DNA of 64,000 nt from an uncultured Chloroflexia bacterium (GCA_963796715.1 CAWCMN010000009.1:262546-326545), one strand, 5' to 3'. Positions 2,521-19,119 are shown, counted from the stretch's first letter. Numbers and translations: made by a program. Notes: generated by a model not told the origin, from the sequence alone.

Positions 2521-4266
2521 TCACGTCAGGGGCACGACGAAGAGCTCGGTCCCGTCCGCGACCTGGAAGACCAGGAAGGGATCTTGTGCCGAGGCGGGCA
2601 TGGTCACTTCGAACCACCCTTCGAGGGTGTCGTCAACGGGCAGCACCTCGCTGCGCAGCTCGGGCGTGCGCGAGCCGGCCGTGATGGTCGTCTTGCTCGA
2701 ATCGGCCGTGATGACGCTCCATGCCGCAGGCCCGACCGACCATGCCGCGCTCCTGCTCGCATAGCGCACCTCGATGGCGACCCGGGTCGTCGAGGCTGAC
2801 GTGGCCGGGTCGATCGTCAGCACGGTCACCGTGCCAAGGGTCGTGCTGCCGCTCGTCACGGGCGTCGCGGCTCCGACGTCCACGATCGGCGGCAGGTTCG
2901 ACGGCTCTCCACTCGGCACGACCGTGGCCTCCGCCGAACCGGTGGCCAGCGGACTCGGCGCCACGACGACGAGCGGGCGGTCGGTCGGTTGGGCCTGGCG
3001 GGGCGATCCAAGCGGGCCCACAAGCACGGTCGCCAGGCCCGCCACGACCCCGATCACCACCAGGCCCCCGATCAACGTCGGCAGCGGATCCGCCAGGCTC
3101 AGACCAGCGAGCGGGTCGCGATCGAACCGGCGGCGGACGAGCACTGCCGCAACCAGCGTGGTCATCGGTACGGCGGCGACGATGCCGACGCTGCCCACCA
3201 GGGCGCGCACGATCTCGACCGCCAGGGTCTCCCCGTTGAGGACCTGACCGGCCGGCAACTGGCTGACGACGAGGAGCACGAGCAGGGGCAGGCCCGCCCC
3301 GACGTAGGCCAGGAACAGCGTGTTCACGGTGGCCGCGATGTGGGCACGACCGACACGCAGGCCGCGGCCGTACAGCTGGCGGACGCTCGCCCCTCCGTCC
3401 GCCGACAACTCCTCGACGACGACTGCCTGGGTCATCGTGACGTCCTCGAGGATGCCCAGCGAGCCCAGGATGAACGCCGCCAGGAGGAGCCCGCTGAGGT
3501 CCAGGCCGGCGCCCCCGGCGGACGTCTGGATCTGCGCCAGGTCGGCTGCACCGACGGTGGTGAACTGGGCGAAGTGGGTCGCCGCAGCCCCCAACAGGCC
3601 GGTCAGGGCGAGCGCTGCTGCCGTGCCCAGGATGGCCGCGACACTGGCGACCGAGAAGCCCTCGGTCAGGAGGATCGTGAGCAACGTGACGGCCGTCGCG
3701 GCGACGACCGCCAGCGGCACCGGTGGGTAGCCCGCCACGATGAGGGGCAGGACGACCCGCACGATCACGGCGATCGTCAGGCCGAGCGCCAGCAGCGCGC
3801 GCGTGCCTCGCCAGCCGCCCACCAGCACGACGGCGACCGCGAACAGGAGCGTCAGCAAACCCAGCTGGGGCAATCGCCAGTGGTCCGTCACCGCGATGAA
3901 CGGGCCCGCCCCCGGCTGTGGCGTGTACGTCACCACGACCGCGTCGCCCGGGTGGAAGGACGTCAGGTCCTCGGTCCCGCCCGGTCCCTGGAGGTACGCC
4001 GGCACATCGTGGCCCGCGTCGGGGCCTTCGGACATGTGCACCGTGGCGTCCGGGGCGAATCCGCCATCGGGGAGCTGGGTCGGGTTGGCGACGACCGTCA
4101 CTAACGTCCCCTGGTAGGCCGTGACCGTCCCCTGGCCGGCAGGGATCCCTGACAGGTCCGGCAGCGCCAGGACGAGGGTGAGCAGGGCGATCACGAGGGC
4201 GGGAAGGAGGAACGGTCGAGGCTCCAGGCGGTCGATGAACCCCGCCAGGCGTTGGCTGAGGCTCAC
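2521..4266 (-). CDS. YibE/F family membrane protein with a C-terminal extracytoplasmic domain extension of about 200 aa
   Basis: 581 aa. The N-terminal 380 aa are multi-TM and paralogous to the downstream YibE/F (HWRLPQLG, YLGTALPLLVL-type segments). The C-terminus is a Pro/Thr/Ser-rich linker plus a beta-rich domain ending FVVPLT. There is a 5-nt gap to uppP downstream. Confidence 0.8.
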   Translation of the reverse strand: MSLSQRLAGFIDRLEPRPFLLPALVIALLTLVLALPDLSGIPAGQGTVTAYQGTLVTVVANPTQLPDGGFAPDATVHMSEGPDAGHDVPAYLQGPGGTEDLTSFHPGDAVVVTYTPQPGAGPFIAVTDHWRLPQLGLLTLLFAVAVVLVGGWRGTRALLALGLTIAVIVRVVLPLIVAGYPPVPLAVVAATAVTLLTILLTEGFSVASVAAILGTAAALALTGLLGAAATHFAQFTTVGAADLAQIQTSAGGAGLDLSGLLLAAFILGSLGILEDVTMTQAVVVEELSADGGASVRQLYGRGLRVGRAHIAATVNTLFLAYVGAGLPLLVLLVVSQLPAGQVLNGETLAVEIVRALVGSVGIVAAVPMTTLVAAVLVRRRFDRDPLAGLSLADPLPTLIGGLVVIGVVAGLATVLVGPLGSPRQAQPTDRPLVVVAPSPLATGSAEATVVPSGEPSNLPPIVDVGAATPVTSGSTTLGTVTVLTIDPATSASTTRVAIEVRYASRSAAWSVGPAAWSVITADSSKTTITAGSRTPELRSEVLPVDDTLEGWFEVTMPASAQDPFLVFQVADGTELFVVPLT

Positions 4267-4968
4267 GCGTCGAGTTTCCGCGGGTCTGCCCCTGCTAGGC
4301 TTGCGCCTGCCCTGGAGAGGAGGTCACGCACGCGCTCGCGCCGCGCCCCTGACTGGCGCCTGATCGGCCCATCGGTCGGCCTGCTCGTGGCGGTGGCTGT
4401 CCTGCTGGTCCTCTCCCAGCCGCATCGCAGCCCGGCCGCGGCTCCGGGACCGGCCGCCCAGCAAACGGATGCTGCCTTCGCGTCGTCGCCTCCGACCGGC
4501 GACTCGTTGGTGTCCGACACGACCGAGCCCCCGACCACCCTGCTCCCCCCGACCGCCACACCCGGGACAACCTCCGCGACCGTCCCGACGGCCTCGCCGG
4601 TGACGGCATCGCTCGGCGAAGCCGTACGGATCGTCGACGCGGGCAGCTCGCTGGGCACGGTCACGGTCGTGGAGATGGATCCGTTCACCACGGGCCAGAC
4701 CGAACGCGTGGAGATCCGGGTGCGGTACCTCGCGGGCGCGGGCAGCTGGCCGATCGACCCCGCGGCCTGGGGCGGCATGAGCGCCGACGGCAGCACGTTC
4801 ACCGGGTACGCCGGCGGACGCACCCCGGCTCTCCGCGCCACGACGCTCGCGGCCCACGGGTCCCTCGAAGCGTGGTTCGAGATGGACTTCCCGACCGCGG
4901 CGCAGGGCCCGCTGCTGACGTACGCCGCGACCGACGGCACGGTCCTGTTCACGGTGCCGCTTCCCTGA
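4252..4968 (+). CDS. Membrane-anchored secreted protein; standalone paralog of the C-terminal domain of the 2521-4266 product
   Basis: 238 aa with an N-terminal TM (LIGPSVGLLVAVAVLLVL), a Pro/Thr-rich linker and a domain about 45% identical to the fusion's C-terminus (GTVTV..DP..RV.I.VRY..W...PAAW..AD....RTP.LR...LE.WFE..P.AQ.P.L....DGT.LF.VPL). The start is uncertain because it overlaps the divergent gene start. Confidence 0.6.
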   Translation: MAEAHASSFRGSAPARLAPALERRSRTRSRRAPDWRLIGPSVGLLVAVAVLLVLSQPHRSPAAAPGPAAQQTDAAFASSPPTGDSLVSDTTEPPTTLLPPTATPGTTSATVPTASPVTASLGEAVRIVDAGSSLGTVTVVEMDPFTTGQTERVEIRVRYLAGAGSWPIDPAAWGGMSADGSTFTGYAGGRTPALRATTLAAHGSLEAWFEMDFPTAAQGPLLTYAATDGTVLFTVPLP

Positions 4969-6109
4969 GTGCCGGTGCGTGTCGCACCGGCTCATGCCAC
5001 CACGCGGCGATGGCCGTGGTGGCCGGGACGGCGGCCAGGATGCCGATGCTGCCGACCGCGGCCCGCACGATCTCCACGGCCACCAGCTCCTGGTTGACGC
5101 TCAGGCTGAACTGGGCGAGCTGGAGGGACAACAGCACCAGCAGGGGCAGGGCCGTCCCAAGGTAGGCGAACACGAGGGTGTTGACCGTGGCGGCGAGGTG
5201 GGCGACGCCGACATTCATCGCATGGCCGTACAGCTCGCGACGGCTGAGGCCGGGGTCGGCAAGGGCCAGCTCCTGGACCGTGGCGGCCTGCCCGATGGCG
5301 ACGTCGTTGAGCACACCCAGTGCGCCGAAGATGACCGCTGCCAGCAGCAGGCCCGAGAGGTCGATCTTGTCACCCACGATCTGCTGGAGGTAGATGACCG
5401 TCTCGGAGCCCTGGGCCGGCGTGAACTGGGCGAGGCCTGTGACCACCACGGCCAGGAGACCGGTGAGTCCCAGGCCGATCGACGTCCCCAGGATCGCCGC
5501 CAGCGTGGCGCGCGTGAAACCCTGGGTCAGCAGGAACGACACCGCGGTGATGAGGATGCCCAGGCTGATGGCCAGGCCGACCGGCTGCCAGCCCGACAGC
5601 AGCAGCGGGATCAGCACGCGGATCGCCAGCACCAGCGTCAAGGCCAACGACACGAGCGCCCGCAGGCCGCGCCAGCCGGCCACGGCGATCGTGACCAGCG
5701 CGAAGAGGCCGACGAGCCCGCCGATGAGGGGCAGGCGCCAGCGATCGACGACCGAGACCTGGGTCGTCCCGTCGGGCAGGTGATCGATGGCCACGAGCAC
5801 CTGGTCGCCGACGTGGTAGTCGGGGATCTGGAGGGCGCCGCTCGGACCCTCGATGGTGGCCGGCACCGTCTGGCCCGCCTGTGGGCCGTCGAGGAACTTG
5901 ACGGTGCCGGTCGGGCCCTGCGGCCCCGTGGGGGGCACGATCGTGACGATGACGCCGTGTGCCTGGTCGGAGATCAGCCCCACGCCGGCCGGCGGCGTCA
6001 GGTCGGGCAGGAGGACGACGAGGGCCGCCACGAGCAGCACCCCCAGGCCGAACGCGATGACGTGTCGATCGCTCGACGGCCGACCATCGGTCGGGGGTCG
6101 GGCAGCCAT
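4949..6109 (-). CDS. YibE/F family membrane protein
   Basis: ATG at 6109 is preceded by AAGGAGAGGAGG. The product is multi-TM and paralogous to the N-terminal half of 2521-4266 (VVDRWRLPLIGGL, VVTGLAQFT, AATVNTLVFAYLGTALPLLVL). Confidence 0.8.
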   Translation of the reverse strand: MAARPPTDGRPSSDRHVIAFGLGVLLVAALVVLLPDLTPPAGVGLISDQAHGVIVTIVPPTGPQGPTGTVKFLDGPQAGQTVPATIEGPSGALQIPDYHVGDQVLVAIDHLPDGTTQVSVVDRWRLPLIGGLVGLFALVTIAVAGWRGLRALVSLALTLVLAIRVLIPLLLSGWQPVGLAISLGILITAVSFLLTQGFTRATLAAILGTSIGLGLTGLLAVVVTGLAQFTPAQGSETVIYLQQIVGDKIDLSGLLLAAVIFGALGVLNDVAIGQAATVQELALADPGLSRRELYGHAMNVGVAHLAATVNTLVFAYLGTALPLLVLLSLQLAQFSLSVNQELVAVEIVRAAVGSIGILAAVPATTAIAAWWHEPVRHAPALREAAP

Positions 6110-6228
6110 CGAGCCTCCTCTCCTTGGGCCGCGAGAGGGTAGCAGACCGGCCTGCGCCTTGACCACCATATTGAGACTCGGTATCATCTGCGCTTCCCAA
6201 GCCAATTCAGGCTGCACGACTTGGATGG

Positions 6229-7158
6229 ATGAGGAGGAACCACGAGATGAGACGCAGTCTTGGCATGGTCCTGGTCATCGCCGCTCTCGCTGTGACTGCG
6301 GCCTCGTGCGGTGAGGGCACCTCTCCCTCGAGCAGCGGGGGGAGCGGCTCACAGCTGGCGGTCATGGGGACGGAGAACTTCTACGCCGACCTGTTGACGC
6401 AGATCGGGGGTTCGCACGTGCGGGCGACGAGCCTGCTCAACGACCCCAACGCCGACCCCCACGCCTTCGAGACGAGCCCGCAGGACGCGGCGCTGGTGGC
6501 CGACGCGCGGCTCGTGATCGTCAACGGCATCGGCTACGACGACTTCATGCAGCAGCTCCTGGGTGCGGCCCCCGATCCGACGCGGGTCGTGATCAACGTG
6601 CAGCAGCTCCTTGGCGTGGGCGATGATGTCAACGTGCACATCTGGTACGACCCGGGCACGATGCCCAAGGTGGCGCAGGCGGCCGCGGCGGCATTGGGCC
6701 AGCTCGACCCGGCCAACGCGGCCTACTACGATGCCAACGAGCAGGCCTACCTCGCTTCACTGAAGCCGCTGACCGACGAGATCGCCCTGCTCAAAAGCAA
6801 GTACGGCGGCGCGCCGGTCGCGTTCACGGAGCCCGTGGCCGGGTACCTGGCAACCGCCATCGGCCTCCAGGTACTGACCCCCGAGGCCTTCCAGAAGGCG
6901 ATCGAAGAGGGCACCGATCCCGCCCCGGCCGACGTCGCAGCCGAGCAGGACCTCCTGACCGGCAAGAAGGTCAAGGTGCTGCTCTACAACAGCCAGGTCA
7001 CCTCGCCGATCACCCAGCAGGTCCACGACCTCGCCGTCCAGAACGGCATCCCCGTCGTCGGCGTGGCGGAGACGATGCCGCCCGCCTACCAGCACTACGT
7101 GGAGTGGCAGCTGGCCCAGATGCAGGCCCTCCAGGCGGCCCTGGCACAGGGCAGCTGA
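6229..7158 (+). CDS. Metal ABC transporter substrate-binding lipoprotein (TroA/ZnuA cluster A-I family)
   Basis: Lipobox LAVTAASC, a TroA-like fold sequence and operon context with an ATPase and permease. No His-rich loop. Confidence 0.8.
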   Translation: MRRNHEMRRSLGMVLVIAALAVTAASCGEGTSPSSSGGSGSQLAVMGTENFYADLLTQIGGSHVRATSLLNDPNADPHAFETSPQDAALVADARLVIVNGIGYDDFMQQLLGAAPDPTRVVINVQQLLGVGDDVNVHIWYDPGTMPKVAQAAAAALGQLDPANAAYYDANEQAYLASLKPLTDEIALLKSKYGGAPVAFTEPVAGYLATAIGLQVLTPEAFQKAIEEGTDPAPADVAAEQDLLTGKKVKVLLYNSQVTSPITQQVHDLAVQNGIPVVGVAETMPPAYQHYVEWQLAQMQALQAALAQGS

Positions 7159-7162
7159 CGGG

Positions 7163-8011
7163 GTGCCGGACCCGGCCGTCCGCTTCAGTGGGGCGACGCT
7201 CGAGTATCACGGGCGCCGCATCTGGACGGACATGTCGCTGGCCTTCGAAGGCGCCTCCTTCGTGGCCATCCTGGGGCCGAACGGCTCGGGCAAGACGTCG
7301 CTGTTGCGCGTCATCCTGGGCCTCGCGCCGCTGATCGCCGGCCAGGTCCAGGTACTGGGCCATGCCCCGCGGCGTGGTGACCCCGGGATCGGGTACGTGC
7401 CCCAGCACCAGGCGTTCGATCCGGACCTGCCGCTGCGCGGTCGCGACCTCATCCAGCTAGGCCTCGACGGGCACCGGTGGGGCCTCGGACGATCCGGGGC
7501 CGCGTCGCGACGACGCGTCGAGACGACGATCGAAGCCGTGCAGGCCACGGCCTACGCCGATGCGCCGATCGGACGCCTCTCGGGTGGCGAGCAGCAGCGC
7601 CTGCGGATCGCCCAGGCCCTCGTGGGCGACCCCCGGCTGCTCCTATGCGACGAGCCGCTGGCCAGCCTGGACCTTCGCTACCAGCAGGGGATCACCGACC
7701 TGATCGGGGACTGGCAGCGCGGTGGTGACCGCACGGTCCTCTTCGTGACGCACGACGTGAACCCCGTGCTCGAGCTGGTGGACCAGGTCCTGTTCGTCGT
7801 CAACGGCCGTTGGGCGATGGGCACGCCCGACGAGGTCCTGACCTCGGACCGGATGACCGAGCTGTACGGGTCGCATGTGGACGTCCTGCGTGTCCACGGG
7901 CGGATCCTCGTGGTCGGGGAGTCCAGCGGCTCGGGGTTCGAGATGGAGGAGCCGCACCACCTGCCGGCCCTGCCCGACGACGATCGTCATCCGGAGCGGC
8001 CCACCTCGTGA
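7163..8011 (+). CDS. Metal ABC transporter ATP-binding protein
   Basis: Walker A GPNGSGKT, signature LSGGEQQR and Walker B LLLCDEP. Confidence 0.9.
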   Translation: MPDPAVRFSGATLEYHGRRIWTDMSLAFEGASFVAILGPNGSGKTSLLRVILGLAPLIAGQVQVLGHAPRRGDPGIGYVPQHQAFDPDLPLRGRDLIQLGLDGHRWGLGRSGAASRRRVETTIEAVQATAYADAPIGRLSGGEQQRLRIAQALVGDPRLLLCDEPLASLDLRYQQGITDLIGDWQRGGDRTVLFVTHDVNPVLELVDQVLFVVNGRWAMGTPDEVLTSDRMTELYGSHVDVLRVHGRILVVGESSGSGFEMEEPHHLPALPDDDRHPERPTS

Positions 8012-8859
8012 TCGACCAGCTCGTCCACCTGCTGGGCTACGAGTTCGCCCAGAATGCGCTCGCCGCCGGCCTCGTGGTGGGCATCGTCTCGGGCGTGGTC
8101 AGCCGATTCGTGGTGATGCGCAACATGGCCTTCGCGGTCCATGCCCTTTCCGAGCTGGGTTTCACCGGTTCGGCCGGGGCGATCCTCATCGGCGCGTCGC
8201 CCGTCCTGGGCCTGATGGCGGGCACGACGATCACTGCCCTGTTCATCGGCGCCCTTGGGGTGCGCGTGCGAGAGCGGGACTCCGTCGTCGGCATCGCCAT
8301 GGCCTTCGGCCTTGGCCTGGGCGTCCTCTTCCTGTCCCTCTACCCGCGCTTCGCGACGCAGGCCTTCGCGATCCTCTTCGGCTCCATCACCGGCGTGAGC
8401 CGGGGTGACGTGGCGCTCCTCATCGGCATCGGCGTGGTCACCCTCATCGCCCTCGCCGTCATGTACCGGCCCCTGACGTTCGCCACGGTCGACCCCGAGG
8501 TGGCCGAGGCCCGCGGCGTCCCGGTACGGGAGCTGGCCATCGCCTTCCTGCTCATCCTTGCCGCGGCAGTCGCGGAGGCGGTCCAGGTCGTGGGCGTCCT
8601 GCTGATCCTGACCCTGCTCATCACCCCGGGCGCCACCGCCGAGCGGCTTACGGTCAACCCAGCCCGGGCCACCATCTACAGCGTCGCGATCGCCCTCGTC
8701 TCGGTGGAGGGCGGCATCCTTCTGGCGCTGGCGACGAACCTGCCCGTCAGCGTCTACGTGACGAGCCTGAGCTTCGCCGGCTACCTCGCCGCGCGCTTCA
8801 TCGTCGGGCCCATGGCGGTCGGCCGTGCCAGCCGCGGACGTCTCGAGGGCGCATCATGA
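8008..8859 (+). CDS. Metal ABC transporter permease (ZnuB/TroC-like)
   Basis: GTG at 8008 overlaps the ATPase stop (GTGA). Roughly 8 TM helices, the usual length for this family. Confidence 0.85.
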   Translation: MIDQLVHLLGYEFAQNALAAGLVVGIVSGVVSRFVVMRNMAFAVHALSELGFTGSAGAILIGASPVLGLMAGTTITALFIGALGVRVRERDSVVGIAMAFGLGLGVLFLSLYPRFATQAFAILFGSITGVSRGDVALLIGIGVVTLIALAVMYRPLTFATVDPEVAEARGVPVRELAIAFLLILAAAVAEAVQVVGVLLILTLLITPGATAERLTVNPARATIYSVAIALVSVEGGILLALATNLPVSVYVTSLSFAGYLAARFIVGPMAVGRASRGRLEGAS

Positions 8860-9289
8860 GGCCGTGAAGACGGTCCTCGTGACGTGGCAGCCGGATGCCG
8901 ACCGATTCGAGGCGCAGGGCGGGCTGCATGGCCACCTCGTCCACATCAACGCGCCCCACGAAGGTCGCCCGGCGGGGTTCTCGGCGAGCGAGCTGCTGCT
9001 TGCCGCGGCCGGTGCGTGCTCGGCCTGGGATGTCGTGGAGATCCTGCGCAAGCAACGGCAGGACCTCACCGCGCTCGAGGTCAGCGTGGAGGGCGATCAG
9101 CTGGACAGCCCGCCGTTCCCCTTCACGCGGGTCGCCCTCGTCTTCCGGGCGAGCGGCCACGGCCTGGACCCGGTGAAGGTGCAACGTGCCGTGGCCATGA
9201 GCGAGGAGCGCTACTGCTCGGTGATCGCCACGATCCGCGGCGTGGCCCAGGTCACCTGCCGCTCCGAGGTCGCCGAAGCGGCGGCCTGA
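8825..9289 (+). CDS. OsmC/Ohr family protein
   Basis: ELLLAAAGACSAWDVVEIL and ERYCSVIATIRG are typical OsmC motifs. The start overlaps the permease 3' end, so the exact start is uncertain. Confidence 0.75.
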   Translation: MPAADVSRAHHEAVKTVLVTWQPDADRFEAQGGLHGHLVHINAPHEGRPAGFSASELLLAAAGACSAWDVVEILRKQRQDLTALEVSVEGDQLDSPPFPFTRVALVFRASGHGLDPVKVQRAVAMSEERYCSVIATIRGVAQVTCRSEVAEAAA

Positions 9290-9299
9290 GGCCGTCGCG

Positions 9300-12200
9300 A
9301 TGCCGACCGTTCCCATGACACCCTCCCAGCGCGGCGGGCCCAACGGGTTGCCGCGATTCCAGCGCCTTGGCCTGTTCATGGCACGCCGGCGCTGGTGGGT
9401 CATCGGCGCCTGGGCCGTCGTGCTCCTGGCGGCCCTGCCGTTCGCGCCGCGGGCCGGCTCGGTCCTGCGCGCGGGTGGCTTCACGCTGCCCGACCTGCCC
9501 TCCGAAGAAGCCCGCGCCACGCTCGCCCAGCTTGGCGTGCCCCCGTCGGTCCTGGCCATCGTCATCGAGTCCACGGGGTCCGCGAGGGCGGGCCAGCCGG
9601 CGTTCGAGGCAGCGGCCGCGGCGGCCGTCGCCGACGTCCCGCACGCGGCGCACGTGACCGGGATCCAGAGCCATCTCGTGTCGCCCCGTCAGGTCAGCAC
9701 CGACGGGACGGTCGTCTACGACATCGTGGACCTTGACCTGTCACCGGACGACTCGCCGGCGGCGATGGCGCCGGTCCAGGCCGCCCTCCACGACGAGCCG
9801 GGCATCCGCACCCTGATCGGCGGCGCGCCCGCCTTCTACGGCGACATCCAGACGGCCTCCGAAGAAGACCTGCGACGGGCCGAGCTGGTGAGCCTGCCGC
9901 TCGCCGCGATCGCCCTCGTCCTGATCTTCGGCGGGATCGTGGCGGCCGGCGTGCCCCTCGTCGTGGGTGGCTCGGCCGTGCTGCTCGCCCTCGCCCTGAT
10001 CTTCCTGCTGGCCAGCGTCACGCCGATGAGCATCTTCGTGCTCAACCTCGCCACCCTGCTCGGGCTCGGCCTGGGGGTCGACTACTCGCTGTTGCTCACG
10101 AGCCGCTTCCGCGAGGAACTCGGCCGAAGGGGCGGCGGCCGGCGCGCCGACGGGTCGATCGACCGCGCGGCGGTGGACGAGGCTGTGGGGGTGACCGTGG
10201 CCACGGCCGGCCGGGCCATCTTCTTCAGCGGCTTCACGGTCCTGCTTGGCCTGGTCGGGCTGGTCCTCTTCGACTTCATGATCCTGCGCTCGGTCGGCGT
10301 GGCCGGGGCGATCGTCGTGGGCATGGCCGTGCTCGCCGCGCTGACCCTGCTGCCGGCCGTGCTGGCCGTCCTGGGGCCGCGGCTGGGGGCGCTCTCGGTG
10401 CGCAGCCTGCTGCGCCGGCCACCGCCGGACCCGGGCGTGCCGCCGCCCGAGAGTCGCTGGGCGCGGCTGGCGCGCTGGGTGATGCAGCGCCCCTGGCGCG
10501 TCTTCGTGCCCACGCTCGGCATCCTCGTCCTGCTGGGCGTGCCGTTCCTGCACGTCCAGTTCGACGCGCCCGACGAGACGATCCTGCCGGCCGACCTCCA
10601 GTCCAGGCAGGCCTACGACGTCCTCTCGACCACGTTCGGGGAGGGGACGTTCGCGCCGCTCGAGCTGGCCGTCCAGGCCACGGGTCCCATCACCGACCCG
10701 GCGATCCTGGGCAAGCTCTACGACTATTCGCGCGAGCTCGCGTCCGATCCGCGGGTGGTGCGGGTGGACGGCCTGGTGGATCTCGACCCCCGCCTGACGC
10801 GAGCCCAGTACGAGCTGCTCTACGCGACGCCGGGCGGGCCGCCCGACCGGTTCGCCGCCGCGGCCCTGGCCGCCACGACCAAGGGTGACCTGACGGTCTT
10901 CACGGTGACCACACCGTATGGGCCCAACGCGGCCCAGGGTCGCGATCTCGTCGCGGCGCTGCGCGATCCGACCTCCGCGCTGGCGCCGCCGGCCGGCCTC
11001 ACGGTCCAGGTCGCGGGAGGCGCGGCCGAGGTGACCGACGTGGTCGCCCGGATGGGCCAGGACTTCCCCCGCACCGCCCTGTTCATCCTCATCACGACCT
11101 ACCTCGTGCTGTTCCTGCTCTTGCGGTCGGTGGTGCTGCCGCTCAAGGCCCTGATCATGAACAGCCTCTCGATCATCGCCAGCTTCGGTGCGCTGGTGTG
11201 GATCTTCCAGGACGGGAACCTGTCGGCGCTGATCGGCTTCCAGCCGCTGGGCTACGTGGAGACGACCCAGCCGGTCATCCTCTTCTGCGTCCTGTTCGGC
11301 CTGTCGATGGACTACGAGGTCTTCCTGCTCAGCCGCATGAAAGAAGCGTTTGACGCAGGCGCCGACAACCGCACGGCGGTCGCACGCGGGCTCGAGCGCA
11401 GCGGCCGGATCGTCACGAGCGCGGCCCTCATCGTGGTCATCGTGGCCGGCTCGTTCGTCTTCTCGCAGGTCGTGCTCATCAAGGCGCTCGGCCTCGGCAT
11501 GGCCGTGGCCGTCGCGCTCGATGCGACCGTGGTGCGGGCCCTGCTGGTACCGGCCACGATGCGCCTGCTTGGCGACTGGAATTGGTGGATGCCGGCCCGC
11601 CTCGCCCGCTGGATCGCGGCCAGGCTGCCGGTCGTCGAAGGGGCGACCCTGGTCCAGGCCGTCGTCGTGGCGATTCTCGCCGCGTTCGTGCTGGGGGCGT
11701 GCTCGGCGAACGGGGCCCTGCTGGCGAATGCGCCAGCGGCGCACCCCCTGGTGGCGCGGCCAAGTGCCAGTCCGGTGGCCGCACCCGACCCGCAGCCGCT
11801 GGTCTTCCCGCGCGACGACGGGCCGCACGACCGCCTCACGGAGTGGTGGTACTACACCGGCCACCTGCGGACCGCGAGCGGCGCCACGTACGGGTTCGAG
11901 GACGTCATCTTCCGCGCCGAACGGGGCGCATTCCCGGTGACGTGGGCCTCGCACGTGGCCGTCACCGATGAGCAGGGCCATCGCTTCCTGTACGACCAGC
12001 GTTCGGAGGTGGGCCCGCAGGTGGACGCGGCGCAGTCCGTGTCCAGCGGCCCATACGGCTTCTTCCTGGCCATCTCCGGGACACCGGCTGCGCCCGGGGT
12101 GGCCGCCGCCGATCCTTGGGTGATGCGTGGCTACCTGGGCCACGATGCCCTGGCCGTGTCGTCTGCGACGGGCGGCTTCGCCTTCCAGCTGACGCTCGAC

Positions 12201-12797
12201 GCGGGCGGGCGGCCGCCGGTCCTGCACGACACGAGCGGGTACGTGCCGTTCGGCGCCGCCGGCGGCTCGTACTACTACTCCCGCCCGACCATGCAGGCGG
12301 CCGGCACCCTCACCATCGGCGGCCAGACCATGGCCGTGACGGGGGAGGCGTGGTTCGACCACCAGTGGGGCGACTTCGTGACCGTCGGCGGCGGCGGTTG
12401 GGACTGGTTCGCGGTCAACCTGCCCGACGGCTCGGCCGTCACGCTGTCGCTGATCCGCGACGCCGACGGGACGTACCCGCTCGCGTACGGCACGTATGTC
12501 ACGAGCGACGGCACGATCGTGCACCTCGCGGCGAGCGACTTCACGGTCACCGTGACCGACCACTGGACCAGCCCCCAGACCGGCGCCGTCTACCCATCGG
12601 GCTGGCGCGTCGAGATACCGAAGGCAGGCCTCGTCATCACCCTCCGGCCGACCGTGGCCGACCAGGAGCTGGACACGCGCAGCACGACCGGCGTCATCTA
12701 CTGGGAGGGTTCGCAGGTGGTGACCGCTACGCGCGACGGCGCGCAGATCGCCGCCGACGCCTATGTGGAGCTGACGGGCTACGCCACGGGGCGCTGA
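9300..12797 (+). CDS. MMPL family (RND superfamily) transporter fused to a C-terminal AttH/CrtC-like lipocalin domain
   Basis: 1165 aa. Residues 1-770 have MmpL topology with two 6-TM bundles (GLGVDYSLLL and GLSMDYEVFLLSRM). A 13th hydrophobic segment VVVAILAAFVLGACSANG carries an LGAC lipobox. The C-terminal 370 aa carry FPRDDGPHDRLTEWWYYTGHL and WFDHQWGDF...WDWFAVNLPDGS, which are AttH/CrtC and lipocalin_9-like hallmarks. Confidence 0.85.
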   Translation: MPTVPMTPSQRGGPNGLPRFQRLGLFMARRRWWVIGAWAVVLLAALPFAPRAGSVLRAGGFTLPDLPSEEARATLAQLGVPPSVLAIVIESTGSARAGQPAFEAAAAAAVADVPHAAHVTGIQSHLVSPRQVSTDGTVVYDIVDLDLSPDDSPAAMAPVQAALHDEPGIRTLIGGAPAFYGDIQTASEEDLRRAELVSLPLAAIALVLIFGGIVAAGVPLVVGGSAVLLALALIFLLASVTPMSIFVLNLATLLGLGLGVDYSLLLTSRFREELGRRGGGRRADGSIDRAAVDEAVGVTVATAGRAIFFSGFTVLLGLVGLVLFDFMILRSVGVAGAIVVGMAVLAALTLLPAVLAVLGPRLGALSVRSLLRRPPPDPGVPPPESRWARLARWVMQRPWRVFVPTLGILVLLGVPFLHVQFDAPDETILPADLQSRQAYDVLSTTFGEGTFAPLELAVQATGPITDPAILGKLYDYSRELASDPRVVRVDGLVDLDPRLTRAQYELLYATPGGPPDRFAAAALAATTKGDLTVFTVTTPYGPNAAQGRDLVAALRDPTSALAPPAGLTVQVAGGAAEVTDVVARMGQDFPRTALFILITTYLVLFLLLRSVVLPLKALIMNSLSIIASFGALVWIFQDGNLSALIGFQPLGYVETTQPVILFCVLFGLSMDYEVFLLSRMKEAFDAGADNRTAVARGLERSGRIVTSAALIVVIVAGSFVFSQVVLIKALGLGMAVAVALDATVVRALLVPATMRLLGDWNWWMPARLARWIAARLPVVEGATLVQAVVVAILAAFVLGACSANGALLANAPAAHPLVARPSASPVAAPDPQPLVFPRDDGPHDRLTEWWYYTGHLRTASGATYGFEDVIFRAERGAFPVTWASHVAVTDEQGHRFLYDQRSEVGPQVDAAQSVSSGPYGFFLAISGTPAAPGVAAADPWVMRGYLGHDALAVSSATGGFAFQLTLDAGGRPPVLHDTSGYVPFGAAGGSYYYSRPTMQAAGTLTIGGQTMAVTGEAWFDHQWGDFVTVGGGGWDWFAVNLPDGSAVTLSLIRDADGTYPLAYGTYVTSDGTIVHLAASDFTVTVTDHWTSPQTGAVYPSGWRVEIPKAGLVITLRPTVADQELDTRSTTGVIYWEGSQVVTATRDGAQIAADAYVELTGYATGR

Positions 12798-13090
12798 AGC
12801 GGCCGAGGCGCTGACTCCACGCGCCCGATGTGCATCAAAGGTGTCTAACGACGACGATGAGCGGCAGCGAGACTCGAATCGGCGCGTTCCATCGCTCAGC
12901 TGAGCATCAGGTGTCCATCCCGGCGAATGAGCGGCCCTTCGGCGGTCGTTAGCAACCTTTTGCGTGCATCGGCGCCGGGTTACGGACGGTCCGTTGGTCG
13001 GAAGGGCCCTTCCTGTCGCCCGAGGATGTGGCCCACCCGCCTTGACACCTCGGCCATGCGGTCCATCATCGGCACGAGGGGTGGTGAGGC

Positions 13091-13822
13091 ATGGTGGACG
13101 GGGCGGACACCGCGATCGAAGCGGAAGAGTCCACGACAGCAGTGGGTGAAGCTGACGCTGCCGAGATCCGCTGGCCCGGCGGCGACGACCCCGGCTGGGA
13201 AGCGTGGCGCAGCTTCCAGCCATCCTCCCGGTGGGCCGGCAAGCCGTCCGCGCCGGCCCCCGCGCCCGGCGTCGCCTATGCGGAATTGGGCTTGCGCGCC
13301 GCGGCCTTTGCCATCGACGTGGCGGTCGCGCTCCTCATCAGCAGTCTGGCCGACTCGTACCTGCAGGGTTTCATCGGGCTATCGGGCCTGCCCGGCGACG
13401 CCGTCGGGATGTTCACCGGCCTGCTCGCGATCGCCATCGTGGCGGCCGGCGCCATCGTGGTCGGCTCGACCTCTGCCACGTCGGTGCTGCGGGCGACGCC
13501 GGGCCAGCTGGCGGTGGGGCTCGTGACGCTGACCGCCGACGGCGGACAGGCGGTCCCGTTCCGCCGGGCCCTGGTCCGGCAGCTTCTGTTGATCGGTCCG
13601 GTGTGCCTGATCCCCGTCAGCACCACCCTCGCGTCGCTGCTGGTGGCCATGGCCGTCTCTCCGGACTCGGAGTCGACGACCATCGCGACCTGGCCCTATT
13701 GGATCTGGCCCGTTGTTGCTGTCTTGTGGTACCTGGTCCTCGCGTTGCCGGCGATCCGCGACCCTCGCGGCCGGGGCCTCCACGACCGGCTGGCGGACTC
13801 CGTCGTCGTGCGCGAGGCCTGA
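13091..13822 (+). CDS. RDD family membrane protein with an acidic N-terminal extension
   Basis: 3 TM segments and the C-terminal motif RGLHDRLADSVVV (RDD signature). Preceded by GGTGGTGAGG. Confidence 0.7.
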   Translation: MVDGADTAIEAEESTTAVGEADAAEIRWPGGDDPGWEAWRSFQPSSRWAGKPSAPAPAPGVAYAELGLRAAAFAIDVAVALLISSLADSYLQGFIGLSGLPGDAVGMFTGLLAIAIVAAGAIVVGSTSATSVLRATPGQLAVGLVTLTADGGQAVPFRRALVRQLLLIGPVCLIPVSTTLASLLVAMAVSPDSESTTIATWPYWIWPVVAVLWYLVLALPAIRDPRGRGLHDRLADSVVVREA

Positions 13823-17144: not shown

Positions 17145-17479
17145 CCACGACCCTGATGGCGCTCTACCGCCGGCCCGAAGGCGGCGATGACGCCGTGGCC
17201 ACGTTCCGGCGGCGGTACGCGGCGGAGCACCTGCCGCTCATCCGCCAGGTCCCCGGCCTCCAGAGCCTGCACGTGGCGGACGTGGTCCAGGTGTTCGGCG
17301 AGTCGGATCTCATGCTCGTCGCGCGCCTCGTGTTCGCCGATCGGCCGTCCCTGGACGCCGCGCTCGCGAGCGAACCCATGCGCGCCGCCGGCCGCAACCT
17401 GCGCGAGATCGCGCCCGGGCTGGTCACCATGGTCGTCGTGGAGCCCGACACCGATCTCGGCGCCGCGGGCGACGCATGA
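17141..17479 (+). CDS. EthD-like / small alpha-beta-barrel protein
   Basis: 112 aa with 4-nt overlaps to both neighbours. Its size and pattern match EthD family proteins. Low certainty. Confidence 0.45.
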   Translation: MTTTLMALYRRPEGGDDAVATFRRRYAAEHLPLIRQVPGLQSLHVADVVQVFGESDLMLVARLVFADRPSLDAALASEPMRAAGRNLREIAPGLVTMVVVEPDTDLGAAGDA

Positions 17480-19119
17480 CCGTCGCCTATGCCGTCGACG
17501 GCCGCCGCGCCACGATCCGGCTCGAGCGGCCCGCCCAACTCAACGCGCTCGACGGGCCCACGCTCGACGCGCTGGCCGCCCGGTTCGCCGAGGCGGCGGC
17601 GGACGATCATGTCGGGGTCGTCGTCCTCACCGGCTCAGGCGAGCGCGCCTTCTGCACCGGCGCCGACCTCCGCGAGCAGGAGGCGTTCCTGCGCCGGCCG
17701 CACGACTACTACGCGTGGATGGGCCGCTTCATCGCGGCCATCGAGGCCATCCGTGGCTGTCCCAAGCCGGTCGTGGCGCGGCTCAACGGCATCGTCGTCG
17801 GTGGCGGCAACGAGCTGAACCTGGCCTGCGACCTTGCCGTCCTGGTCGACGACGCCTACATCCGCCACGTCGGGCCGTCGCACGGCAGTCTGCCGTCCGG
17901 CGGCGCCACCCAGTGGCTGCCGATCTTCCTCGGCGACCGCCGGGCGCGCGAGATGCTGCTCCTGAACCGCGAGATCCCCGCTCGCCAGGCGCTTGACTGG
18001 GGGCTCGTCAACCGCGTCGTGCCGCGCGCCGAGCTCGACGCGGCGGTCGACGACTACTGCGCCGAGCTGCTGGCCAAGATGCCCGAGATCTCGCGTGCCA
18101 CCCGGGCGCAGCTGGACTTTTGGCGCGACCTCTCGTGGTCGCTCACGATCCGCATGGCACGGGAGTGGCTGACGCTCCACGCTGCCTCGGACGAGGTGCG
18201 CGAGGGGTTGGACGCCTTCGGGGGCAAGCGTCCGGTCGACTACGAGAAGCTGCGCGTGCGCCTTGAGCAGGGCGGCGACCTGGCCGGAGCGGAAGGGGTC
18301 GTCGTGACCGGCCCGGACGACGCGCATCGACTCCTGCTGCAGCATCCGGCCGTCGACGCCGACGGCGCGACCGTCGACGGCGTGGCCGTCGTGACCCTCG
18401 ACCGGCCGGAGGTGCTCAACGCGCTGGACGGCGAGGCGCTCCGCCAGCTGGCGGACATGCTGCGGCGGCTGGATGCGGATCCGACCTGTCGCGCGGTCGT
18501 CATCACCGGCCAGGGCGAGCGGGCCTTCGCGGCTGGCGCCGACATCAAGGAGATGGTCGACGCGACGCCCGACGAGCTCGAGGCGAGCGGCCGGTTCGGG
18601 TACTGGGACGAGTTCCGGGCCATCGGCCTGCCGCTCATCGCGGCGGTGCGCGGCTATGCCCTCGGCGGTGGTTGCGAGCTGGCCATGACGTGCGACATCG
18701 TCGTGGCGGCCGACGATGCGACCTTCGGCCAGCCGGAGATCAGGATCGGGGTGATGCCCGGCGCCGGAGGGACCCAGCGGCTGACCCGCGCGCTTGGCAA
18801 GGCGCGGGCGATGGAGCTGATCCTGACCGGCGACTCGTTCGGGGCACGCGAGGCGGAGGCGCGTGGCCTGGTCAGCCGGGTGGTCGCCCGCGAGGAGATG
18901 CTGACCGAAGCGCTCGCCCTGGCGGGCCGCATCGCGGCGATGCCGCCGCTCGCCGTGCGGGCGGCGAAGGCGGCCGTGAACCGCGCCTTCGAGCTGCCCC
19001 TCAGTGCAGGCATCGCCGCCGAGCGCCGCGAGTTCTTCCAGCTCTTCGCAAGCGCCGACCAGAAGGAAGGCATGCACGCCTTCATGGAGAAGCGCCCGCC
19101 CGTCTGGCGCGGTCGCTGA
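17476..19119 (+). CDS. Tandem-domain enoyl-CoA hydratase/isomerase (two crotonase folds in one polypeptide)
   Basis: 547 aa. The first domain has LNALDGPT...VVVLTGSGERAFCTGADL. The second starts around aa 290 with LNALDGEA...VVITGQGERAFAAGADIKEM....GYALGGGCELAM. Confidence 0.8.
   Translation: MTVAYAVDGRRATIRLERPAQLNALDGPTLDALAARFAEAAADDHVGVVVLTGSGERAFCTGADLREQEAFLRRPHDYYAWMGRFIAAIEAIRGCPKPVVARLNGIVVGGGNELNLACDLAVLVDDAYIRHVGPSHGSLPSGGATQWLPIFLGDRRAREMLLLNREIPARQALDWGLVNRVVPRAELDAAVDDYCAELLAKMPEISRATRAQLDFWRDLSWSLTIRMAREWLTLHAASDEVREGLDAFGGKRPVDYEKLRVRLEQGGDLAGAEGVVVTGPDDAHRLLLQHPAVDADGATVDGVAVVTLDRPEVLNALDGEALRQLADMLRRLDADPTCRAVVITGQGERAFAAGADIKEMVDATPDELEASGRFGYWDEFRAIGLPLIAAVRGYALGGGCELAMTCDIVVAADDATFGQPEIRIGVMPGAGGTQRLTRALGKARAMELILTGDSFGAREAEARGLVSRVVAREEMLTEALALAGRIAAMPPLAVRAAKAAVNRAFELPLSAGIAAERREFFQLFASADQKEGMHAFMEKRPPVWRGR

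Follow-up and report, generated by a model that had tools for sequence, protein, structure and literature searches.

A conserved MmpL-type transporter and AttH-like lipoprotein pair of Chloroflexota, apparently fused more than once into a single protein with a conserved internal lipobox

In a 64,000-nucleotide (nt) stretch of DNA from an uncultured Chloroflexia bacterium (GCA_963796715.1, CAWCMN010000009.1:262546-326545; this whole stretch is called the window), a single open reading frame (ORF) encodes an MmpL3-like transporter followed by an AttH/CrtC-like domain. We find that this gene represents a conserved pairing of an MmpL transporter with an extracytoplasmic AttH-like lipoprotein, encoded elsewhere by two adjacent genes, and that the fusion confirms the pairing. 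MMPL transporters are well studied only in Actinobacteria, and their partnership with AttH-like proteins has not been previously described; the coexistence of split and fused forms is Rosetta-stone evidence that both proteins work together and offers a handle on the function of bacterial AttH-like proteins. At the junction, the fused proteins keep a lipobox, which raises the question of whether Lgt and LspA can act on a signal peptide placed after a large polytopic protein. We think it fairly probable, judging from the sequences, that the transporter exports lipids at the expense of the proton gradient and has the lipoprotein as its dedicated partner outside the cytoplasm, and that the fused precursor would still be lipidated and possibly cleaved.

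A transporter and an AttH-like domain in one chain

The fused ORF starts with an ATG at 9300 in a region of about 72% G+C and has the extent and length that an earlier note on this DNA, made from the sequence alone, had given it. From N- to C-terminus, the protein consists of an MmpL3-like transporter, a hydrophobic segment with a lipobox, a Pro/Ala linker and a two-barrel AttH/CrtC-like domain. The features below include the transmembrane (TM) helices that carry the putative proton relay, and confidence values are predicted local distance difference test scores (pLDDT).

9288..9291, + strand: GAGG, Shine-Dalgarno-like, 8 nt 5' of the ATG at 9300 and overlapping the stop codon of an OsmC-like gene (direct sequence reading)
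9300..12797, + strand: fused gene, 1165 amino acids (aa) plus stop (ORF list, translation, Pfam, homologs, AlphaFold2)
9300..11624, + strand: MmpL3-like RND (MMPL) body, residues 1-775, with 12 TM helices and two extracytoplasmic loop domains (Pfam, phmmer, Foldseek, AlphaFold2)
10080..10085, + strand: Asp261-Tyr262 in TM4, first half of the putative proton relay (invariant in 111 fused homologs, MmpL3 alignment)
11310..11315, + strand: Asp671-Tyr672 in TM10, second half of the putative proton relay (invariant in 111 fused homologs, MmpL3 alignment)
11571..11630, + strand: native MMPL C-terminal tail, G758..P777 (GDWNWWMPARLARWIAARLP) (invariant residues, MmpL3 alignment)
11640..11702, + strand: hydrophobic segment of signal-peptide origin, residues 781-801, with the lipobox at its end (hydropathy peak, homology to split-form signal peptides)
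11703..11837, + strand: flexible Pro/Ala-rich linker, residues 802-846 (low pLDDT, no modeled secondary structure)
11838..12371, + strand: AttH/CrtC-type N-terminal lipocalin-like barrel, residues 847-1024, with EWWY and WFDHQW (PF07143, E 2.7e-34)
12393..12782, + strand: second lipocalin-like barrel (Lipocalin_9), residues 1032-1161, from the invariant GWDW (PF17186, E 3.1e-36)

The Pfam matches of the 1165-aa protein to MMPL, PF07143 and PF17186 all lie far above the curated cut-offs. Together with an alignment to PDB entry 2ICH and with Foldseek, they uphold the assignment of the two parts to the MMPL and AttH/lipocalin groups made in the earlier note, and both motifs that it had singled out (FPRDDGPHD..EWWYYTGHL and WFDHQWGDF..WDWFAVNL) are found in the translation. 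An AlphaFold2 model of the full chain, built on 111 homologs, has a mean pLDDT of 86 and a predicted template-modeling score (pTM) of 0.82. Values below 50 occur at residues 1-6, 10-12, 775-788, 799-809, 914-916 and 930-933, and the longest stretch without confidence, 775-809, surrounds the junction. An exact-sequence look-up returned no database record for the protein. On the opposite strand, a 1160-aa ORF (9741..13223, - strand) almost exactly shadows the fused gene; since the + strand frame carries all the homology found, we regard this antisense ORF as a shadow artifact of a high-G+C gene.

The fusion is shared by homologs from many assemblies

We searched 5.8 billion proteins for homologs and took counts from the 120 best matches, which are 62-93% identical to the window protein. 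MMPL, PF07143 and PF17186 are combined in one chain of about 1100-1300 aa in 117 of these 120. The fused homologs stem from NCBI, ENA, JGI and Logan assemblies, and most of those that are named belong to 'Candidatus Limnocylindrales/Limnocylindria' (Chloroflexota); database labels are just 'MMPL family transporter' or 'putative drug exporter'. The three exceptions are one partial sequence, one truncated sequence and one protein (P0008) that is out of frame after residue 879. Because this architecture recurs in nearly all of the best homologs from many independent assemblies, the fusion is not a sequencing or assembly artifact. One could still imagine that the two parts are really separate genes, joined by a frameshift or misassembly in one assembly, since only small indels at a 4-nt overlap distinguish the split from the fused forms and since P0008 is visibly frameshifted elsewhere in the gene. 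However, besides the in-frame homologs from the four sources, the frame is open across the junction in all 14 fused loci that we checked in DNA, and fused junctions do not differ by one-base shifts but are without stop, start and n-region altogether. An artifact of this kind is practically inconceivable.

P0008, encoded on a 794-kb contig, shares 92% identity with the window protein as far as residue 879, beyond which it continues for nearly the same length as an Arg/Gly/Pro-rich out-of-frame translation; this frameshift reflects either an assembly error or a pseudogene in that metagenome-assembled genome (MAG). Six further fused homologs (P0009, P0010, P0012, P0015, P0022 and P0032) have 1242-1315 aa and are 80-150 residues longer than the window protein. 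Several of the longer homologs cover about 76% of it in one BLAST segment, and insertions or extended termini are suggested.

Split relatives define a two-gene cassette

When the C-terminal part alone was searched against 1.84 billion cluster representatives, one fused representative was recovered; most of the others were proteins of about 350-410 aa that stand alone, and many of these begin with a lipobox-bearing N-terminus. The closest stand-alone relative (P0121, 60% identity) heads a large Limnocylindria family of lipoproteins of about 400 aa. On long contigs, three such lipoprotein genes (loci L005-L007) lie directly 3' of an MMPL gene for 745-765 aa, the stop and start codons overlapping by 4 nt in ATGA. 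These separate MMPL proteins end in ...NWWMPATLERFVGNRLPASEADVEASLR*, and the split-form lipoproteins start M..RR..hydrophobic..L[AG][AG]C. A radical-SAM/LAM_C gene lies near four fused loci (L001-L004) and all three split loci and was not identified in the window; ZnuA and ABC genes are common to the window, L005 and L007, PfkB to the window, L003, L006 and L007, and a short-chain dehydrogenase to the window, L001, L002, L004 and L006. Because of these shared surrounding genes, we take the window, the four fused loci and the three split loci to be orthologous. Whether orthologs are fused or split, a point raised in the earlier note, has a double answer: the closest ones are fused (117 of 120), and a stop codon separates the two parts in syntenic split relatives. 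These syntenic split orthologs, with their 4-nt overlap, bear out the proposal that the transporter captured a downstream lipoprotein gene.

To survey the cassette, an AttH-domain alignment was scanned over one genome per species, and the best 80 loci were kept and classed by tblastn and frame analysis.

Fused: 9 of 80 loci; Chloroflexota/'Chloroflexia' MAGs, one labeled Limnocylindrales
MMPL gene directly upstream on the same strand: 48 of 80 loci; Limnocylindria, Ktedonobacteria, Thermomicrobiales, 1 of 4 Dehalococcoidia loci, a Rubrobacter MAG
No MMPL gene: 23 of 80 loci; Nitrospira, Nitrosomonas, cyanobacteria and others

Among the Ktedonobacteria with a split pair is a cultured organism with a complete genome, Ktedonosporobacter rubrisoli (NZ_CP035758.1, with the pair near 10.03 Mb). 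The 4-nt overlap (ATGA or GTGA) occurs in 32 of the 40 split loci that could be fully analyzed, and the partner protein has an N-terminal lipobox in all 40. In Ktedonobacteria, Rubrobacter and Dehalococcoidia the genes flanking the pair are unrelated (SmpB, PhoD, MFS, GyrA and others), and therefore the pair itself is the conserved unit. The pairing of an RND transporter with a lipocalin-like protein is thus no peculiarity of the fused form but a two-gene cassette widespread in Chloroflexota. The remark that AttH-like genes stand beside ABC-type permeases holds for the archetypal AttH of Agrobacterium, whose gene sits behind those of an ABC ATPase and an FtsX-like permease, in agreement with PMC2954199. 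The AttH relatives that are closest to the MMPL-linked group while lying outside it (P0128 and P0132) come from short contigs without MMPL.

Neither the MmpL-AttH cassette nor its recurrent fusion nor the conserved internal lipobox seems to have been described before: a search of the accessible literature on MmpL with AttH or lipocalins, on Limnocylindria and on internal lipoboxes found nothing relevant.

Origin and recurrence of the fusion

Neighbor-joining trees were calculated for the MMPL part, the AttH part and their concatenation from 54 loci, with Ktedonobacteria as outgroup and 200 bootstraps. The split state lies at the base of these trees, and the fusion is almost certainly derived from a split operon. 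Fused loci form two clades, F1 (the window and seven others, 186 of 200 bootstraps) and F2 (five loci, 200 of 200), and F1 and F2 together were monophyletic in none of the 200 bootstraps with the MMPL, AttH or concatenated sets. Because the two clades never group together, at least two fusions are suggested. Their junctions, read by eye, are of two kinds: in F1 the MMPL tail is kept through RLPxxE and followed by the hydrophobic stretch, and in F2 the parts are joined directly after NWWxPxxLRR. It counts against repeated fusion that these are simple distance trees and that one fusion followed by several fissions is an alternative, albeit a less parsimonious one.

In a first, domain-only neighbor-joining tree, split forms had been nested inside fused ones; this topology was overturned with species-representative loci and proper outgroups. 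A further fused locus, L040 (JBJMMR010000058.1), was considered as a third independent fusion and not counted, being a mosaic or a chimeric MAG contig. Its MMPL part is 94% identical to the split lineage L030, its junction and AttH part resemble F2 (70%), and its MAG also carries a split copy (L031); either recombination or a chimeric contig gave rise to L040.

The transporter part resembles MmpL3

Pfam MMPL (PF03176) matches the transporter part in two stretches (E 1.3e-83). By hydropathy and AlphaFold2, 12 TM helices end at about residue 762 and are followed by a short tail helix (766-775) and an extra helix (786-799), so that the N-terminal part is the complete 12-TM transporter it had been said to be. 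The MMPL domain is duplicated, with large loops after TM1 and TM7, as is characteristic of the MMPL family within the RND superfamily. With phmmer, this part matched MmpL3 chains at E 2e-81. Foldseek aligned it to MmpL3 (7n6b) at E 1.7e-34, with a target-normalized template-modeling score (TM-score) of 0.82 and 28% identity, and listed MmpL4/5, HpnN, NPC1 and Dispatched lower down for the RND core. NCBIfam MMPL/MmpL3 models match below their equivalog cut-offs. Because the protein scores 317.6 bits with NF052608 against a cut-off of 1400, it is, on sequence models, an MmpL3-like transporter and not an MmpL3 ortholog.

The segment GLGVDYSLL, with D261 and Y262, aligns to GLGIAIDYGLF of M. smegmatis MmpL3, and GLSMDYEVFLL, with D671 and Y672, to GLSTDYEVFLV. 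In MmpL3 structures, such Asp-Tyr pairs reportedly form the proton relay. Since the invariant pairs align to those of the MmpL3 relay, the transporter looks active, its proton-relay residues having been kept.

The AttH/CrtC-like domain and its possible activity

The C-terminal 365 residues align with NE1406 (PDB 2ICH, 'putative AttH') over both barrels (domain residues 32-362, E 6.7e-37), and Foldseek superimposed this part on the same structure with a target-normalized TM-score of 0.86; sequence identity is 31%. With two barrels, both Pfam models and the NE1406 structure matched, the domain belongs to the AttH-like/CrtC superfamily. Its location outside the membrane is plausible, because the MMPL C-terminus is cytoplasmic after TM12 by homology to MmpL3, because Arg767, Arg770 and Arg775 precede the hydrophobic segment and because the split partner is an exported lipoprotein; the outside location claimed in the earlier note stands at that strength and no higher.

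The characterized relatives raise the possibility that the AttH-like part works as a hydratase outside the cytoplasm and attacks a C=C bond in a lipid presented by the MmpL part, which would be compatible with either a cleaved or an uncleaved protein. Carotenoid 1,2-hydratase CrtC acts on isoprenoid double bonds (PMC4717167), and kievitone hydratase and the archaeal hydroxy-GDGT (glycerol dialkyl glycerol tetraether) synthase Hgs are likewise hydratases of isoprenoid double bonds (bioRxiv 10.1101/2025.10.20.683597). Among the residues invariant across the family are the acidic and aromatic ones E848, W849, Y851, D1020, W1034, D1035 and W1036. In addition, the invariant H1021-Q-W1023 resembles His239-x-Trp241 of CrtC, two of the catalytic residues His239, Trp241, Tyr266 and Asp268 (Rubrivivax numbering; PMC4717167). 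Yet, in a comparison made without a CrtC sequence, Tyr266 and Asp268 could not be placed in the window protein, and no CrtC-specific NCBIfam model matched it at E values up to 0.01. Moreover, NE1406, the closest solved relative, has R-E-W in place of H1021-Q-W1023; it is without known activity, and a role as a transporter-linked ligand binder has been suggested for it (PMC2954199). On balance a hydratase is possible, though somewhat less likely than not.

Fungal Diels-Alderases with a two-β-barrel fold reportedly form a further enzymatic group.

A conserved lipobox at the junction

Within the MMPL tail, residues G758, N761, W762, W763 and P765 are invariant in 111 fused sequences, the set to which the conservation counts below refer. 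The sequence MPARLARWIAARLP aligns to LLGDDCWWAPRWM of MmpL3, and separate MMPL genes carry this tail ahead of their stop codon. It is therefore the NWWxP tail native to the MMPL family and not a relic n-region; the positively charged stretch had previously been taken for the fossil n-region of a lipoprotein. The in-frame ATG (M764) reported at about 11590 lies at 11589-11591, inside this native tail. That the lipoprotein might be made separately from an internal start at this codon, as had been envisaged, is very improbable: the ATG exists, but position 764 is the x of the NWWxP motif and varies among homologs (M, L, I, V, A and others), there is no usable Shine-Dalgarno sequence (the sole purine-rich stretch, GGTGG, directly adjoins the ATG, which leaves no spacing), and upstream of the hydrophobic segment there is no further conserved start in frame.

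The hydrophobic segment itself is present as described in the earlier note. Its lipobox, L798-G799-A800-C801, lies at 11691-11702, with the Cys801 codon (TGC) at 11700-11702, and is preceded by 20 uncharged residues, with R767, R770 and R775 further upstream. The protein thus has a lipobox of the form [LVI][ASTVI][GAS]C after a hydrophobic stretch with upstream positive charges. In the split-form lipoproteins the homologous segment is the N-terminal signal peptide, whereas in the fused protein it follows 775 transporter residues and is therefore no N-terminal signal peptide.

The lipobox cysteine occurs in 111 of 111 fused sequences and is the sole invariant residue between P765 and D830. Position -1 is G or A in 110 sequences, position -3 is L or V in 106 and position +1 is S or T in 99, a canonical consensus ([LV]-x-[GA]-C-[ST]) amid surroundings that vary freely. 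'Fossil', the term used in the earlier note, does not fit a lipobox conserved in this way. The mature domain has no other cysteine in 109 of the 111 sequences, and a role in a disulfide is therefore unlikely.

Right after the cysteine, the linker carries the motif G-x-[IL]-L-A-N-P (G805 86%, L808 95% and N810 76% conserved in the fused sequences). The longer form C-[ST]-x-x-G-x-[IL]-L-A-N-P (11703-11740, residues 802-814) is common to fused and split Limnocylindria proteins (P0121, P0270-P0280), although the linker around it is variable and disordered; it might help the mature lipoprotein to dock or to be sorted.

A proposed precursor of pump and lipoprotein

We hypothesize that a monomeric-type, MmpL3-like RND transporter would draw on the proton-motive force to carry a hydrophobic membrane compound to the cytoplasmic membrane's outer face, a direction that we infer from homology, and that the AttH/CrtC-like double β-barrel outside the membrane would receive or chemically modify this compound. 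In most of the Chloroflexota covered here, the two proteins come from separate, translationally coupled genes, with the MMPL stop and the lipoprotein start overlapping in ATGA and the second protein a classical lipoprotein. A deletion across this overlap would then have joined the frames in at least two Limnocylindria lineages, including that of the window, and turned the lipoprotein signal peptide into an internal, 13th hydrophobic segment. In the fused precursor, Lgt would attach diacylglycerol to Cys801 and signal peptidase II would cut before it. The products would be those of the split system, namely an MmpL protein extended at its C-terminus by a short helix, and an AttH-like protein held by its lipid anchor through a linker of about 30-45 residues.

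Because the lipobox cysteine is strictly kept, and this in two independent fusion lineages, the lipoprotein pathway would appear still to recognize the fused precursor. A functional, lipidated lipobox is accordingly probable on conservation grounds, and for cleavage by signal peptidase II we see an even chance. An isoprenoid-type substrate is conceivable, because the characterized enzymes of the AttH family act on isoprenoid double bonds, but rather improbable. A lipoprotein-like signal peptide is also found at the start of the window's ZnuA-like protein, a hint that the organism may make lipoproteins. We tentatively go one step further and propose, at somewhat less than even probability, a natural transporter-lipoprotein polyprotein, in which the internal signal peptide is lipidated and cut by signal peptidase II to release pump and partner in a 1:1 ratio. 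As cleavage would make the products of fused and split genes equal, the fusion would be nearly neutral, which would explain its recurrence without loss of the lipobox.

The main alternative is the model of the earlier note, a permanent covalent fusion with a logic like that of NPC1, in which an uncleaved 13th TM helix tethers the AttH-like domain beside the loop domains of the MmpL part, the cysteine being lipidated without cleavage or conserved for another reason. The length of the segment bears on this in both directions. The uncharged stretch before the cysteine has 13-26 residues (median 19-20) in the fused sequences against a median of 14 in the split forms, and most fused sequences have 17-20 or more, which would suit a permanent helix; however, 22 of the 111 have just 13-14, a length typical of a signal peptide and short for a stable TM helix. 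AlphaFold2 models a helix (786-799) within a whole chain of pTM 0.82, but this helix has only 14 residues, with flanks of pLDDT below 50, and no other part of the protein is modeled with less confidence or is less conserved than this segment. A fusion would also guarantee 1:1 stoichiometry and proximity. An anchor, on the other hand, needs no lipobox, yet the cysteine and the G or A at -1 are kept in 110-111 of 111 sequences and in both fusion clades. We regard a permanent tether as a possible but rather improbable outcome.

Several points speak against the lipidated and possibly cleaved precursor that we prefer. One is the greater length of the uncharged stretch in most fused proteins; another is the pTM of 0.82, which may mean a defined docking of the two parts and would suit a covalent tether just as well. 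Lipidation and cleavage are proposed from conservation, in an uncultured lineage, and the genomic context gives no clue to the substrate. A tblastn search of about 1 Mb of DNA with E. coli Lgt and LspA as queries, which is uninformative, did not find lgt or lspA.

To our knowledge, current lipoprotein predictors and annotation pipelines inspect N-termini only; if Lgt and LspA do act internally, they would miss such cases. If the polyprotein model is correct, this would be the first natural example known to us of signal peptidase II cutting inside a polytopic membrane protein, and it would define a previously undescribed MmpL-AttH module for lipid export or modification, widespread in Chloroflexota.

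Comparison with known systems

With MmpL3 and other MMPL proteins of Actinobacteria, the transporter part shares the 12-TM RND core, the two loop domains, the Asp-Tyr pairs in TM4 and TM10 and the NWWxP tail; MmpL3 structures are 28-29% identical to it, with target-normalized TM-scores of 0.82-0.86. MmpL4/5 reportedly work with a small operon-encoded partner, MmpS4/5, which resembles the arrangement of transporter and partner described here. In the present case, however, the partner is not an MmpS protein but an AttH-like two-barrel lipoprotein, and it is fused to the C-terminus. Chloroflexota are not known to make mycolic acids.

The AttH/NE1406 type has the same two-barrel fold and Pfam pair, and in Agrobacterium the AttH gene lies immediately 3' of, and overlaps, a membrane transporter gene. 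There the partner is an ATP-driven permease of the FtsX/MacB type, whereas here it is a proton-driven RND protein; NE1406 has DREW where the window protein has DHQW, and the function of the AttH archetype is not established. CrtC, kievitone hydratase and Hgs share PF07143 and the H-x-W motif, and all act on membrane-embedded or hydrophobic isoprenoids. None of them has been reported as fused to or paired with an RND transporter, and catalysis in the present protein is putative.

Extracytoplasmic ligand-handling domains linked covalently to a transporter through an extra hydrophobic segment also have precedents. OpuABC and GlnP of Lactococcus are fusions of an ABC transporter with its binding protein through a former signal peptide, and NPC1, whose structures were among our fold matches, is a 13-TM eukaryotic RND protein with a fused sterol-binding domain and a soluble partner, NPC2. 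The cytochrome b-c1 precursor FbcH of Bradyrhizobium is a polytopic precursor that is cut at an internal signal peptide. These cases differ from ours in that they involve ABC permeases, signal peptidase I or, in NPC1, an N-terminal fusion. We know of no described natural lipobox of the signal peptidase II type after a 12-TM transporter, and a literature search found none. In mycobacteria, the lipid-binding lipoprotein LprG is co-transcribed with the membrane transporter Rv1410c (P55) and serves lipid export to the envelope. That operon likewise combines a transporter with a lipid-binding lipoprotein, but the transporter is of the MFS type, the lipoprotein has another fold and the two are unfused.

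Genomic neighborhood

The neighbors of the fused gene in the window comprise a ZnuABC-type importer, OsmC, an RDD protein, PfkB and a short-chain dehydrogenase. Those upstream on the same strand are:

6229-7158, + strand: ZnuA-like gene, with a lipoprotein-like signal peptide
7163-8011, + strand: ABC ATPase gene
to 8859, + strand: ABC-3 permease gene
8825..9289, + strand: OsmC-like gene, likely start GTG 8866, directly upstream of the fused gene (Pfam OsmC, E 5.5e-15)

These four genes follow one another closely on the same strand as the fused gene, which is packed just as tightly behind them (6159-12797, +), and sigma-70-like sites in the region are found only at 6159-6187 and at 13042-13069, 3' of the fused gene. 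The tight packing and the position of these sites at both ends suggest that 6159-12797 may be one long transcription unit. The OsmC-like gene, of the peroxiredoxin type, ends 10 nt before the fused gene, and the two are probably co-transcribed. An OsmC gene lies directly upstream also in L001 (7460-7984), L002 (5374-5937) and L003 (5439-5915) and not in L004-L007; the association is limited to clade F1, with none in F2 or in split loci. A connection with lipid hydroperoxides is conceivable by analogy, because the NE1406 paper loosely links AttH relatives to oxidative-stress survival (PMC2954199).

Related Limnocylindria loci share radical-SAM (LAM_C) and metal-homeostasis genes (Fur, ZnuABC, Zip, multicopper oxidase, Rrf2), and genes for Fur, ZnuABC, Zip and multicopper oxidase lie near the split pair in L005-L007. 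Metallophore export, a candidate function prompted by the Zn and Fur neighbors, was rejected, the neighbors being unrelated in distant taxa. As the surrounding genes are not shared with Ktedonobacteria, Rubrobacter and Dehalococcoidia, we treat the local context as lineage synteny and not as functional evidence.

Further from the fused gene, the window contains a BacA gene (undecaprenyl-diphosphatase family; 1635-2516, - strand) upstream of the region, and two tandem genes for YibE/F-like membrane proteins (2521-4266 and 4949-6217, both - strand). A 547-aa ORF at 17476-19119 (+ strand) matches the enoyl-CoA hydratase family twice, in separate parts (ECH_1, E 1.8e-129); either the protein has tandem domains or the ORF spans two neighboring genes.

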